From Actinomycetes bacterium (GTDB taxonomy: Bacteria; Auribacterota; JAJCYG01): a stretch of 64,000 bases of DNA. The translations under genes and the position numbers were made by a program. Of this stretch, positions 6,006-31,246 are shown piece after piece. The DNA is taken from contig JAJCYG010000002.1 of the NCBI GenBank assembly GCA_029263055.1, positions 21,362 to 85,361 of the forward strand, written 5' to 3'. The notes beneath the pieces were generated by a model, which ran no database searches, was not told where the DNA came from, and saw only the letters and a list, made by a program, of their open reading frames with translations. Position 1 is the first letter of the stretch. Each line of letters begins with the position of its first letter.

Positions 6006-8306
6006 ATGAAACGAAGCTGTTTTCCTCGCTGGTCTGTCCTGTTAATCACTCTTCTAACTTTTTCACCCTTGAATATACCGATTCTGTCGCAAAACTATTT
6101 AGCTCCGACCCGTTCTGGAGTCAATATTGTTTATGAAAAACTACAAGTAGGGTCTGTTTATTCTGCTTCTGCTTCAGTTGATGAAAATCGACAAAATGGG
6201 TATGCAGGTTTTTCTTTAGATCATAATTGGCCACATTTAAACAAAGAACTTACAACCGCTTTATTTGGTGGTAGCTATGGAATAGATGGTGTGATCCTTC
6301 ACGGTATGCATACCTCTTCATTGAGCTTAGATGCTTTGGCTGAACAGTTGAGTTTAAATGTGAATACAGACTATAAAGTTGTTTCTGAAGAATCAAAATA
6401 TAAGTTTCCTGTGGCCGTTGGAGAGAAAATAGATTTTCAGATGACAGTTCTTAAGATTGATGATGCAGGGATTGCTACTGTTGAAATTATTGGAAAAAAT
6501 TCAGCGGATAAAGTTGTTTTAAAGCAGACTGTTAAGCTCGCTGAATCAGGAGGAACGTCTACAGAATTAGAAGCAGCAGTTGCTTCTAAAGAACCGCCTT
6601 CGAGTTCTTATCTAAGTGAGGTATATCCTTCTTTAGAACCGTTTAAACGAGAAGCACCACCTGTTTATCTTCAAGGAAAAAATCTTTCTTTTCAGTGGAA
6701 CAATGACAGGGCAATTGCTGACTTAAGAGCTCTTTTTTCAGACTCAAAATTTAGCGATGTCAAATTAGCTAAAGCCATTACAACTTATGTGGCAGCTAAA
6801 ATGTTTCCCAGCAATTTGTTTGCGATCTCACGCATTACTGAGATCGATCAAGATATTTCTTTAGAAGGTCCTTTTACCATTGAAGCTGAGGTAGAGAGTT
6901 TTGGAAAAGAGGGTAAGCAGCGAGGGAGAAGTTTGACTCGACTTAAGGTTAAAGATAAAGAAGGAGCTCTTTTGTTTCAAGCAGAAATTGGAATGTCTGC
7001 TTTTACATATACCCGTGATGAATTAAAAGCATTATCAAGAAGTAGAGATCCTGAAACAAACTTAGCTTCAATCATCCGTGGTAAAAATCAATTTGAACTT
7101 GAAATGATTTTTGATGCTATTTTAAAAGCAGATATCTCTGGAGTTGAATTTATTGATGAGTACCATAAAGCGATTGCGGAAGATCCTGGAAAGACTTTAG
7201 ATGCAGCAAAAGCTCTCTTGGCAGAAAAAGAATTAAAAGTGGCTGTTGTGGGTGTTGGCGGTATTGGTGGAGGTGTGGCTGAAGCATTGGGGCAAATACC
7301 AGGAGTTAAGTTGACTGTGATTACTCGCAGTGATGCAGGTGCTACACGACTTCGTGAAAAATTTGCTAATGCTGGGATTACAGAGTACGAAGAAGTTCGT
7401 TTGCGACCAGCTGCGACTGTTTTTGAGCCGTTAAAAGAGGTGATTGATAGTCTTTACCTAAGAATTGATGCGTTTCGAAGACTTTCTGAGTCATTACCTA
7501 CTTTGAAATCAATGATGGAATTGATTCGAGGTAAAGCAAACGAAAGAGAATTAAATACTGAAAGTTATGTAAAAGCTGTTTTTGAAGCCAAAGAAAAAAT
7601 GGAGGGACTAGATGTACTCTTTATTGGAACTGGAAAAACAGATAACAAAGATACTCTTTTACCGCGTAAATGGGAAACACCTGAAGATATTGTGAAACAT
7701 TTAAAGGTTTCGGGTGATATCACAAATGTGAATCAACGTTATGTTGAAGCAGCCTTTACTGCGGCGGCTGCAAACCGTGCCAACAAAATATTTGTGGTTG
7801 GTTCCGTGCATGGAAAGCATATGGGGAATGCTTTTGTGGCTGCTTATTCTCGGAGTAAAGCTTCCAATGCTCGACTTGCAGAGACTTGGCCTCTAGCTGG
7901 TGCGGCTGACCCTGAATCAATGGGAATTTCTCTTGAAGGGGATTATATTTTGAGTCGGATGACTGCAGGAGTGGCTATGGCTGTTTTGCGTGGAACCAAA
8001 CTCGGCTTTTTTATGACGCCTAAACAGGTGGCTGAAGCTGCGACTTGGTTGATTGCTTATCACCATCATGAAGAGTTAGGATACATGGCAAAGCATCGTA
8101 AAAAAGAAGGTGTGATGATTCCAGATACATCAACAGCCGTTGCTTCAGGTGCGCATCAAGTGGCTGTGCCGGGTGATGCAAGTGTGGCGTTGATTAAAGC
8201 AAAAACAGCACCCACGAAAAAGTTGACGCCTAAGTCTGCTCCAAAAATTGAAACACAATTAAGTGGTGGATTAAGTGCTGCCGCTTTAGTTGGAGCAGCG
8301 ATCTAA
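6006..8306 (+). CDS. Leader-tagged fusion: double MaoC-type hot-dog (enoyl-CoA hydratase/dehydratase) + SDR oxidoreductase
   Basis: I moved the start to ATG 6006 (GAGG 6 nt upstream; the track starts at 5958). Hot-dog 1 is GYAGFSLDHNWPHLN...ILHGMHTSS (around nt 6150-6540). Hot-dog 2 lies around 6600-7010. The SDR Rossmann motif VAVVGVGGIGGG is near nt 7249 and the catalytic YSRSK (YxxxK) near nt 7846. Leader ...LNIPILSQNYLAPTRS; C-terminus ...LVGAAI. Confidence 0.75.
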   Translation: MKRSCFPRWSVLLITLLTFSPLNIPILSQNYLAPTRSGVNIVYEKLQVGSVYSASASVDENRQNGYAGFSLDHNWPHLNKELTTALFGGSYGIDGVILHGMHTSSLSLDALAEQLSLNVNTDYKVVSEESKYKFPVAVGEKIDFQMTVLKIDDAGIATVEIIGKNSADKVVLKQTVKLAESGGTSTELEAAVASKEPPSSSYLSEVYPSLEPFKREAPPVYLQGKNLSFQWNNDRAIADLRALFSDSKFSDVKLAKAITTYVAAKMFPSNLFAISRITEIDQDISLEGPFTIEAEVESFGKEGKQRGRSLTRLKVKDKEGALLFQAEIGMSAFTYTRDELKALSRSRDPETNLASIIRGKNQFELEMIFDAILKADISGVEFIDEYHKAIAEDPGKTLDAAKALLAEKELKVAVVGVGGIGGGVAEALGQIPGVKLTVITRSDAGATRLREKFANAGITEYEEVRLRPAATVFEPLKEVIDSLYLRIDAFRRLSESLPTLKSMMELIRGKANERELNTESYVKAVFEAKEKMEGLDVLFIGTGKTDNKDTLLPRKWETPEDIVKHLKVSGDITNVNQRYVEAAFTAAAANRANKIFVVGSVHGKHMGNAFVAAYSRSKASNARLAETWPLAGAADPESMGISLEGDYILSRMTAGVAMAVLRGTKLGFFMTPKQVAEAATWLIAYHHHEELGYMAKHRKKEGVMIPDTSTAVASGAHQVAVPGDASVALIKAKTAPTKKLTPKSAPKIETQLSGGLSAAALVGAAI

Positions 8307-8307
8307 A

Positions 8308-29911: not shown

Positions 29912-31246
29912 ATGAAGCAAAAACAGTCTCGAATCTTAGCCTTTTGTCTGACCTTTCTGTTGGTCTTTTCATTAACAAACACCTATGCCTTAGCACCAGC
30001 CAGCTCTTCGACTAAGCTCTTATCTCAGCTATTAAAAGAATGGGTCACCTCTGAAGTTCTTCTTCCTGGCGAGTTTTTAGGCACGCAATTTCCAAAATCA
30101 GTTGGAATTGTAGGGGTTGCCACAACGTATCCTTCAAGAAAAATGACCAATCAAGACTTGGTGGCTGAAGCCGATCGAGTTTTGCCTGGGGTTAAGCTTC
30201 GTTTAAAATCTTTGGGATTAGAGTATCGAGATTCAAGACATTACCGTGACCCAGCCGCGTTTGAGGCAAAGGGAACAGGCATTACTTCACGCCAATGGTT
30301 TGATCCTGATAACGATATTCCTTCAGAAATGGCAGCCCAAGCTTTAATTGAAGCATTGGAACAAGCGGGTTATCCATTAGAAAAAATCACATGGAGGCTA
30401 CGTCCTTGGTTGATTGGTGTGTCTACTTATGGAGCTGAATTATTGAGTCCAGGTTTGGGACCACTTGTGAACCGTTATTTAAACCTCCCGTTTCCTCTTC
30501 CTTCTATTTCAGCCGATGCGGTCTGTCCCGGCTGGATTGCAGCGGTGGCTGACCTTCTTCCCAAAGTGGCGACAGGAATGGCCGGTTTAGGGCTGATTCC
30601 GGTTTTAGAATATTACAGTCGTTATTTGCGACCTGACTCAGGTTCTTCCTGGCCTATTTTTGGTGATATGGCGGCAGGGACTGTCTTGGCTGAAGTTGAA
30701 AAAGGTAAAGGGATTTTGTGGGGTCTGTATCAAACAGATGGAAAACCAACTTATTTGAGTCAAGAAGCGCGTGGCAAGGCGATCGGAGATGTGACATTGG
30801 CCCATATTATTAAAACCCAACATGAAGGTTTTTTTGGAATGCATGGCCAAGCTGTTGGAGCCATGGCTGAAATGACAGGCGAGTTTGCTGTGAAGCGAAT
30901 GGCTCATGTGATGAAACAAGAGGGACTAGGTTCTTTAGATGATGTGAATTGGTTTGTGTTTCACCAAGCGAATAAAGGACTGATCTTAAAACTAGCAAAG
31001 AAACTCGGTATTGAGGAATCTAAACTGGTGTTTACTATGGAAGAGTTTGGAAACACTTCTGCAGCTTCGATTCCTTTAACATTAGATGTGCACCGCGCCA
31101 AATTTAAACCAGGTGATTTAGTTTTTATGGGGACCTTTGGCGGAGGTTTTCAGTGGGGAGCCTTATTAGTTGAGTGGTCTGAGATGAAAGTAACCACATC
31201 TCAAATACCTCTTCCTTTACAAGCTAGCTTAAACGCCTCACTTTAA
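29912..31246 (+). CDS. Leader-tagged KAS III / FabH-like condensing enzyme
   Basis: 444 aa. Its ATG directly abuts the TAA of the upstream gene. Cys-His-Asn triad contexts: DAVCPGWIAAV, FVFHQANKGLI, GNTSAASIPL. Leader MKQKQSRILAFCLTFLLVFSLTNTYALAPASS; C-terminus ...LNASL. Confidence 0.8.
   Translation: MKQKQSRILAFCLTFLLVFSLTNTYALAPASSSTKLLSQLLKEWVTSEVLLPGEFLGTQFPKSVGIVGVATTYPSRKMTNQDLVAEADRVLPGVKLRLKSLGLEYRDSRHYRDPAAFEAKGTGITSRQWFDPDNDIPSEMAAQALIEALEQAGYPLEKITWRLRPWLIGVSTYGAELLSPGLGPLVNRYLNLPFPLPSISADAVCPGWIAAVADLLPKVATGMAGLGLIPVLEYYSRYLRPDSGSSWPIFGDMAAGTVLAEVEKGKGILWGLYQTDGKPTYLSQEARGKAIGDVTLAHIIKTQHEGFFGMHGQAVGAMAEMTGEFAVKRMAHVMKQEGLGSLDDVNWFVFHQANKGLILKLAKKLGIEESKLVFTMEEFGNTSAASIPLTLDVHRAKFKPGDLVFMGTFGGGFQWGALLVEWSEMKVTTSQIPLPLQASLNASL

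Follow-up and report, generated by a model that had tools for sequence, protein, structure and literature searches.

A 64,000-nucleotide stretch of contig JAJCYG010000002.1 (assembly GCA_029263055.1, an Auribacterota bacterium), referred to here as the window, carries six open reading frames (ORFs) in succession on its + strand between positions 5958 and 34237, termed P1 to P6, whose products range from 444 to 2812 aa. Based on its domains, we propose that in this cluster the ethylmalonyl-CoA (EMC) pathway takes a form specific to the lineage, carried on four or five giant multi-enzyme polypeptides, a reading towards which the evidence tips modestly. That the cluster encodes a CoA-ester pathway built on crotonyl-CoA carboxylase/reductase (Ccr), methylsuccinyl-CoA dehydrogenase (Mcd) and methylmalonyl-CoA epimerase (MCE) types of enzyme, within the family space of the EMC pathway, appears very probable. 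The domain set fits the EMC pathway better than other known routes, and so does what was found for Mcd, Ccr and the MCE fold.

A first-pass annotation of the window had placed every enzyme family of such a pathway on five leader-tagged polypeptides. P1 to P5 (782, 1272, 2719, 2812 and 444 aa) are indeed uninterrupted ORFs under translation table 11, with the start of P1 moved from 6006 to a GTG codon at 5958. Our domain calls rest on Pfam, NCBIfam, PDB and fold searches, and the family-level inventory that they return matches the EMC pathway. The contents foreseen for P3 (a CitE-family lyase, a double MaoC hot-dog, an AMP-forming ligase and an acyl-CoA dehydrogenase), for P4 (a B12 acyl-CoA mutase and a carboxyltransferase, found as MCM, B12, AccA and AccD domains) and for 29912-31246 (a ketoacyl synthase III, KAS III, which is FabH-like) were all recovered. 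P1 holds the predicted short-chain dehydrogenase/reductase (SDR) and MaoC domains, but a single MaoC was found where a double one had been claimed; the double hot-dog belongs to P3. As for the larger proposal, that of a complete EMC route in the form of megaenzymes, the family inventory and the Ccr, Mcd and epimerase steps stand, while completeness is not supported: biotin carboxylase (BC) and biotin carboxyl carrier protein (BCCP) lie outside the cluster, which has one mutase.

The dehydrogenase of P3 and the Ccr-type and epimerase-like domains of P2

The acyl-CoA dehydrogenase domain of P3 is closest in the PDB to Mcd structures, namely 8CIW, the Mcd homolog of Pseudomonas migulae (291 bits), and 6ES9, the Mcd of Paracoccus denitrificans (192 bits), with other acyl-CoA dehydrogenases far below. 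In the alignment with 8CIW, mapped according to the substrate-residue roles described for Mcd (PMC5798300, PMC10266731), the domain retains the Arg and Ser of helix E, the Arg of the 'GYRGMHS' loop, the Thr/Arg pair and the catalytic Glu ('IFEGAEE'), and the position of the C2-methyl pocket is occupied by Val. Since this residue set is retained, the domain is an Mcd-type dicarboxylyl-CoA dehydrogenase, in agreement with the methylsuccinyl-CoA-dehydrogenase type predicted at first pass. The clade to which it belongs takes in the Mcd of the EMC pathway as well as Mcd homologs of methylsuccinate catabolism, and its top NCBIfam model is that of the acryloyl-CoA reductase AcrC.

The medium-chain dehydrogenase/reductase (MDR) of P2 has the Ccr structure 4gi2 as its top PDB match (E 1.6e-38), above AntE and the alcohol dehydrogenases, and retains the Ccr motifs NxN and GYE, so that the earlier call of a Ccr-like enzyme now holds beyond the family level; mapping gave no reliable placement for the counterpart of H365. 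Its score against TIGR01751 (183 bits) is under the cut-off of 378 because an insert of about 450 aa splits the domain. The genome has only one other Ccr-family MDR, a protein of 346 aa. An insert of the P2 type occupies the same position in the fused proteins P0130-P0133, two of which come from Elusimicrobiota metagenome-assembled genomes (MAGs), and the homologs P0125 and P0126 share the architecture of P2. An AlphaFold2 model of the insert (residues 443-895) from the single sequence was uninformative (pLDDT 35.6), and ESM-Atlas searches with the insert and with residues 462-1194 of P3 gave only sub-threshold matches (weak SecA-like clusters, 0.82-0.88) or nothing usable.

The C-terminal region of P2 is not detected directly by Pfam. 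It aligns with the Glyoxalase_4 domains, of the vicinal oxygen chelate (VOC) superfamily, in fused relatives, Glyoxalase_4 being matched in three of the six homologs. An AlphaFold2 model built on a six-sequence alignment (pLDDT 84, pTM 0.80) shows two beta-alpha-beta-beta-beta modules, and its best Foldseek matches are the MCE structures 6bu2, 6wf6, 1jc5 and 3rmu (E 5.9e-9 to 1e-6), from Mycobacterium tuberculosis, Streptomyces coelicolor, Propionibacterium shermanii and human. As modelled, the domain thus has a methylmalonyl-CoA-epimerase-like VOC fold. The epimerase-like domain announced at first pass is therefore present, but its placement within the insert was rejected, as alignment and model put it in the C-terminal region, at about residues 1050-1250. 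P2 is accordingly a candidate for both Ccr and ethylmalonyl-CoA epimerase.

The other domains of the cluster

The SDR of P1 has a Rossmann motif of the form GxGGxGGG (GVGGIGGG at about residue 430) and a catalytic stretch, GSVHGKHMGNAFVAAYSRSKA, with the Ser, Y630 and K634; a phmmer search found no PDB homolog of P1. Judged by these motifs and its MaoC domain, the protein is a candidate for the PhaB and crotonase (CroR) steps. Acetoacetyl-CoA is usually formed by a thiolase. In the cluster, the position of the thiolase (PhaA) is taken by the KAS III P5, beside the PhaB/FabG-like SDR of P1, and thiolases are encoded elsewhere in the genome. P5 is the second KAS III of this genome, the canonical, leaderless FabH being on contig C83, and is a candidate acetoacetyl-CoA synthase.

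P3 is a candidate for malyl-CoA lyase (Mcl), mesaconyl-CoA hydratase (Mch), a CoA ligase and Mcd together. Its lyase domain matches Pfam weakly and aligns with the strong HpcH domain of P0132. The top NCBIfam model is malyl-CoA/beta-methylmalyl-CoA lyase, also weak, with RipC (second) and CitE models scoring nearly equally, and the top PDB match, the Rhodobacter sphaeroides malyl-CoA lyase 4l9y, is likewise weak. The double hot-dog combines a MaoC domain with an MFE-2 hydratase-2 N-terminal domain and is HadA/HadB-like. For the AMP-forming ligase, the top PDB match is the malonyl-CoA synthetase MatB, a dicarboxylate CoA ligase.

In P4, the alpha barrel of methylmalonyl-CoA mutase (MCM) type carries a GYHM motif and the B12-binding domain a DxHxxG motif (DGHDRG), with an MCM-beta-like barrel placed ahead of the B12 domain. 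The carboxyltransferase follows in the order AccA-like C-domain, then AccD-like N-domain, and residues 1344-1751, 1889-2200 and 2392-2812 returned nothing from Pfam at relaxed E-values. By its domains, P4 would be a candidate for ethylmalonyl-CoA or methylmalonyl-CoA mutase (Ecm/Mcm) together with the carboxyltransferase of propionyl-CoA carboxylase (Pcc). Residues ~480-1180 of P3 and ~1344-1718 and 2392-2812 of P4 are 45-66% identical to those of relatives and have no detectable domain.

A proposed route for C2 assimilation

Taken together, these domains could be arranged in the following order. P5 would condense acetyl-CoA with malonyl-CoA to acetoacetyl-CoA, which the SDR of P1 would reduce to (R)-3-hydroxybutyryl-CoA and its MaoC hydratase convert into crotonyl-CoA. 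The Ccr domain of P2 would then carboxylate crotonyl-CoA with CO2 and NADPH to (2S)-ethylmalonyl-CoA, and the VOC domain would epimerize this product for the B12 mutase of P4, the predicted source of methylsuccinyl-CoA. In P3, the dehydrogenase would yield mesaconyl-CoA, the double hot-dog beta-methylmalyl-CoA, and the HpcH lyase glyoxylate and propionyl-CoA. The carboxyltransferase of P4, supplied with carboxybiotin by BC and BCCP encoded elsewhere, could turn propionyl-CoA into methylmalonyl-CoA, and the last steps to succinyl-CoA would fall to the housekeeping MCM with its epimerase, or else to P4. Overall, C2 units would be assimilated and CO2 fixed, beside the glyoxylate shunt. The presence of consecutive enzymes on giant chains suggests substrate channelling, and with several of the steps on a single chain, the unstable ethylmalonyl-CoA and mesaconyl-CoA probably stay near the next active site.

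Conservation of the fusions in relatives

The fused architecture recurs in independent assemblies. In GCA_040960375.1, the upstream genes HhH-GPD, ThiI, PrmA, PAPS reductase and PMT are retained, and are followed by a 212-aa leader protein, a 1302-aa protein with Ccr, insert and VOC domain (45% identity to P2), a 2767-aa homolog of P3 (58%) and an MCM-B12 protein. A metagenomic relative encodes a 2618-aa protein (P0002) of P4 architecture at 52% identity, with a P3-like gene on one side and a KAS III (55%) on the other, and also retains the downstream order NTP-transferase, APH, phosphoenolpyruvate carboxykinase (PEPCK). The cluster proteins of the relatives bear the same leader and tail motifs as those in the window. 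Among the relatives sampled from the Genome Taxonomy Database, which are of the same phylum and of different families, only one genome has a related giant protein, an ORF of 6879 aa (G018:C12:6161-26797) with an AMP-ligase region and a Ccr-like MDR that a shorter insert interrupts. The ribosomal protein L2 of the genome under study is only ~67-69% identical to named proteins from Desulfobacterota-like MAGs. Outside the phylum sample, fused proteins from Elusimicrobiota MAGs join Ccr-like MDR, insert, VOC, MaoC, HpcH and 3HCDH domains, and EMC-type domains therefore recur together as fusions.

The size of the ORFs is unusual, and giant ORFs are numerous in this genome (2.95 Mb in 124 contigs, GC 40.5%), the largest encoding 19,496 aa, which could suggest mis-assembly or read-through of separate genes. 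However, the neighbouring genes are normal, and independent assemblies share the fusions, at 45-58% identity, with the same architecture, gene order and leaders. The fused ORFs are therefore not assembly artefacts; this explanation was rejected on the conserved synteny, and read-through of separate genes, largely refuted by the same facts, deserves next to no weight.

A leader and a tail shared by unrelated proteins

Each polypeptide of the cluster begins with one hydrophobic segment and an S/P-rich linker, followed by an invariant '[YF]LAP-x-[ST]' motif with the LAP at residues 27-48, which bears out the leader tags of the first-pass annotation. About half of the leader proteins also end in a tail of the form '[FV]E[TS][SA][LI]' (ETSL, EASL, ESSI); genome-wide, the tail is present on 49% of leader proteins against 3%, a 16-fold enrichment. 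Some 45 proteins of the genome are tagged in this way, among them Ser/Thr and ABC1 kinases, HEAT-repeat scaffolds, an SNF2 helicase, an M48 peptidase and a large number in which no domain is known (for example G000:C99:153907-160692, C87:19541-26323, C45:95793-101303 and C2:3639-7079, with about 40 more). Because so many unrelated proteins carry the tags, these are not specific to the pathway. The largest ORF of the genome, G000:C42:18586-77076 (+), likewise has an N-terminal leader, together with a SecA_DEAD-like domain at about residue 15,200 and, at its C-terminus, a LAP motif and the tail 'VFEQAA'. Neither the leader nor the tail motif is described in the literature that was searched.

Leader and tail, as read from their motifs, point to a lineage-specific bipartite sorting system and probably route their proteins to one shared destination in the cell. 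Enzymes that depend on ATP, CoA and B12 are unsuited to a normal periplasm, and the candidates for that destination are therefore anchoring in a membrane or a membrane-bound compartment inside the cell, with the latter perhaps the place concerned. It would be a bold extension to see in the cluster a bacterial metabolic organelle, in which EMC-type C2/CO2 megaenzymes with channelling are sent by a bipartite signal into a membrane-bound intracellular compartment, and we regard it as doubtful.

Features and surroundings of the cluster

The coordinates of the cluster and of nearby features are collected in Table 1. The 272-aa leader-tagged protein on the - strand returned nothing from Pfam at relaxed E-values, and the same searches found no domain in P6, which is not syntenic in the metagenomic relative. 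The enolase-PEPCK fusion possibly is linked to the cluster. A separate ATP-PEPCK without leader lies near this fusion at 36779-38464 (+), and in a relative, a GTP-PEPCK occupies the corresponding syntenic place. Housekeeping neighbours in the window, namely an HhH-GPD glycosylase, ThiI, PrmA, a PAPS reductase, PMT, a fumarase, a Mur ligase and a radical SAM protein, have no leader. GC skew is positive throughout positions 1-64000 (+0.1 to +0.25), consistent with the + strand holding most of the genes. Scanned against Rfam, the window showed neither a riboswitch nor a non-coding RNA, and a search of public sequencing runs found no RNA data, only DNA runs from one biofilm-metagenome study of 2021.

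Table 1. Coordinates in the window of the cluster proteins, their principal domains and nearby features
Feature	Positions	Strand	Evidence
P1, 782 aa: leader, MaoC (R)-hydratase (residues 70-177), FabG/PhaB-like SDR	5958..8306	+	Pfam and motifs
MaoC hot-dog domain of P1	6165..6488	+	Pfam PF01575, E 1.3e-10
SDR-like reductase region of P1	7239..7892	+	Weak Pfam adh_short/ApbA matches and FabG-like catalytic motif
Leader-tagged protein, 272 aa	8308..9126	-	Counterpart beside the Ccr gene in GCA_040960375.1 (212 aa, 34% identity)
P2, 1272 aa: leader, Ccr-family MDR (residues 221-442, 896-1051), insert (443-895), VOC (~1050-1250)	9353..13171	+	Profile, PDB and fold searches
Conserved ~450-aa insert within the Rossmann part of the P2 MDR	10679..12037	+	Same position in fused MDR proteins P0130-P0133
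VOC domain, methylmalonyl-CoA epimerase-like, C-terminus of P2	12470..13102	+	Alignment A1, Glyoxalase_4 homologs, AlphaFold2 model
P3, 2719 aa: leader, HpcH/CitE lyase (~205-482), MaoC double hot-dog (~1181-1480), MatB-like ligase (~1540-2090), Mcd-type acyl-CoA dehydrogenase (~2264-2700)	13201..21360	+	Profile and PDB searches
Mcd-type acyl-CoA dehydrogenase domain of P3	19990..21300	+	PDB matches and substrate-residue mapping
P4, 2812 aa: leader, MCM alpha TIM barrel (101-729), MCM-beta-like barrel (835-1114), B12 (1222-1343), AccA-like (1752-1888), AccD-like (2201-2391)	21473..29911	+	Profile searches
P5, 444 aa: leader, KAS III (FabH-like)	29912..31246	+	Domain and PDB search; adjoins P4 in relative (L087, 55% identity)
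P6, 991 aa: hydrophobic N-terminus, 'EEAI' tail	31262..34237	+	ORF and Pfam scan
Enolase + ATP-PEPCK fusion with leader (LAP motif) and C-terminal tail	40934..44308	+	Domain and motif scans

Discussion

Several observations weigh against the EMC reading. Neither BC nor BCCP was found in the window, as the first-pass annotation had already noted, nor a biotinylation motif in the cluster, and a carboxyltransferase alone does not carboxylate. The search of the rest of the genome that it had called for located two BC/BCCP sets, on contigs C95 and C99, and a leaderless housekeeping MCM with its epimerase on contig C40. Both BC/BCCP sets lack the leader. The cluster has only one functional mutase domain, and a second mutase step would need the MCM of contig C40. 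Neither a thiolase nor an Mcl2 thioesterase is encoded in the cluster, P1 is absent from the syntenic position in GCA_040960375.1, and the MatB-like ligase of P3 is surplus to the needs of the EMC pathway. The P3 dehydrogenase resembles the Pseudomonas Mcd homolog more closely than it does the Mcd of the Paracoccus EMC pathway, and Mcd homologs of the Pseudomonas type also serve methylsuccinate catabolism (PMC12290011). The lyase and hydratase of P3 and the mutase of P4 are placed at the level of family, and large conserved regions (the P2 insert, ~480-1180 of P3, ~1344-1718 and 2392-2812 of P4) have no assigned function. Finally, isocitrate lyase domains are present in an ORF of 1188 aa (G000:C117:22526-26092, - strand), possibly a fused glyoxylate-shunt enzyme, and the EMC pathway is therefore not required for growth on acetate. 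This does not refute the EMC pathway, because P. denitrificans runs both routes (PMC6747724).

On contig C99, a leaderless thiolase, BCCP and biotin carboxylase stand together (G000:C99:1284-5638, - strand), and are a possible acyl-CoA carboxylase system.

The main competing explanation is that the cluster degrades C5-dicarboxylates such as methylsuccinate, mesaconate and itaconate. The ligase would activate the acid, the dehydrogenase would form mesaconyl-CoA and the MaoC domains citramalyl-CoA or beta-methylmalyl-CoA, from which the HpcH lyase would release either pyruvate and acetyl-CoA or glyoxylate and propionyl-CoA; P4 would take propionyl-CoA to succinyl-CoA, with P1 and P2 as accessory proteins. 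The proximity of the dehydrogenase to 8CIW, of the type acting in methylsuccinate catabolism, is in keeping with such a function, as are the resemblance of the ligase to the dicarboxylate CoA ligase MatB and the rank of RipC, an itaconate C-C lyase, as second NCBIfam model of the lyase. However, C5 degradation would leave superfluous the Ccr and MCE-like epimerase of P2, the B12 mutase and the PhaB/KAS III set, and the Mcd-type Val at the C2-methyl pocket is compatible with either explanation. We therefore consider C5-dicarboxylate degradation unlikely.

The AcrC model that leads for the same dehydrogenase in NCBIfam raises the prospect of a 3-hydroxypropionate (3HP)/propionyl-CoA route, in which P3 would resemble propionyl-CoA synthase (PCS), its ligase, MaoC dehydratase and dehydrogenase (as acryloyl-CoA reductase) leading to propionyl-CoA, and P4 would carry propionyl-CoA to succinyl-CoA. 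PCS-like fusions do occur among the weaker homologs of P2. On the other hand, the dehydrogenase retains the dicarboxylate-binding arginines of Mcd, which an acryloyl-CoA reductase does not need, the ligase is MatB-like and not a 3-hydroxypropionyl-CoA synthetase, and Ccr and the VOC epimerase are present in a cluster with no malonyl-CoA reductase. A route of this kind seems quite improbable, and the 3HP bi-cycle was rejected as the principal explanation on the missing malonyl-CoA reductase and on the MaoC dehydratase and Mcd-type dehydrogenase of P3, which do not form the PCS architecture. We give similarly little credence to a role in making a specialized alkyl-branched unit, whether an alkylmalonyl-CoA extender of the sort that Ccr homologs provide in polyketide clusters, or a branched lipid whose synthesis the second KAS III would prime. 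Secondary metabolism does employ homologs of Ccr, among them AntE, which also matches P2, the additional KAS III is leader-tagged, and the 6879-aa protein of the relative in the same phylum combines a ligase with a Ccr-like MDR; against this, no polyketide synthase, acyl carrier protein or non-ribosomal peptide synthetase domains lie in or near the cluster, and domains of the Mcd, Mch-like, Mcl-like and epimerase kinds typify assimilatory or catabolic routes and not the making of extenders.

The EMC pathway is one of the main alternatives to the glyoxylate shunt, and serves as a model for enzymes that fix CO2. Ccr ranks among the fastest carboxylases known, and the synthetic CO2-fixation designs HOPAC and CETCH employ enzymes of this pathway. 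Should the cluster encode the EMC pathway or a close relative of it, its megaenzymes would offer a natural example of channelling for unstable CoA-ester intermediates, with a bearing on such designs. The recurrent fusions in Elusimicrobiota MAGs point to an uncharacterized family of C2/C5 CoA-ester megaenzymes. In addition, the occurrence of the leader and tail on about 45 proteins, with ATP-dependent enzymes, kinases and a helicase among them, hints at a route of protein sorting not recognized so far, possibly to an internal compartment.

Comparison with known systems

The enzymes of the cluster are of known kinds. Their arrangement in megaenzymes that carry leaders and conserved inserts is not described in the literature searched, in which we found no report of fused EMC megaenzymes. 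The EMC pathway of R. sphaeroides, Methylorubrum extorquens and P. denitrificans (PhaA, PhaB, CroR, Ccr, Epi, Ecm, Mcd, Mch, Mcl1/2, Pcc, Mcm) uses the same families in the same order. Unlike in those bacteria, the enzymes of the cluster are fused in four to five giant chains with conserved inserts and bear a lineage-specific leader and tail. A KAS III occupies the place of the thiolase, a MatB-like ligase is added, the carboxyltransferase comes without BC and BCCP, and the Mcd homolog of Pseudomonas is a closer match to the dehydrogenase than the Mcd of Paracoccus is.

The PCS of the 3HP bi-cycle of Chloroflexus aurantiacus also joins CoA-ester enzymes of successive steps, an AMP-forming ligase among them, in a single natural chain, with channelling of unstable intermediates presumed. 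PCS, however, has a crotonase-family dehydratase and an MDR reductase where P3 has an HpcH lyase, a MaoC hydratase, a MatB-like ligase and an Mcd-type dehydrogenase, and the fusions of the cluster are spread over at least four proteins. In the fused isobutyryl-CoA mutase IcmF, a B12 mutase is likewise joined to other domains, but its partner is a GTPase, whereas in P4 the partners are an MCM-beta-like barrel and an acyl-CoA carboxyltransferase. The fused MDR megaproteins of Elusimicrobiota MAGs (MEK7286955.1, P0131; MBI3291672.1, P0133) and P0132 share with the cluster the Ccr-like MDR with its insert and the VOC, MaoC and HpcH domains; they differ in domain order and composition, have 3HCDH in place of the SDR, and carry neither leader nor tail.

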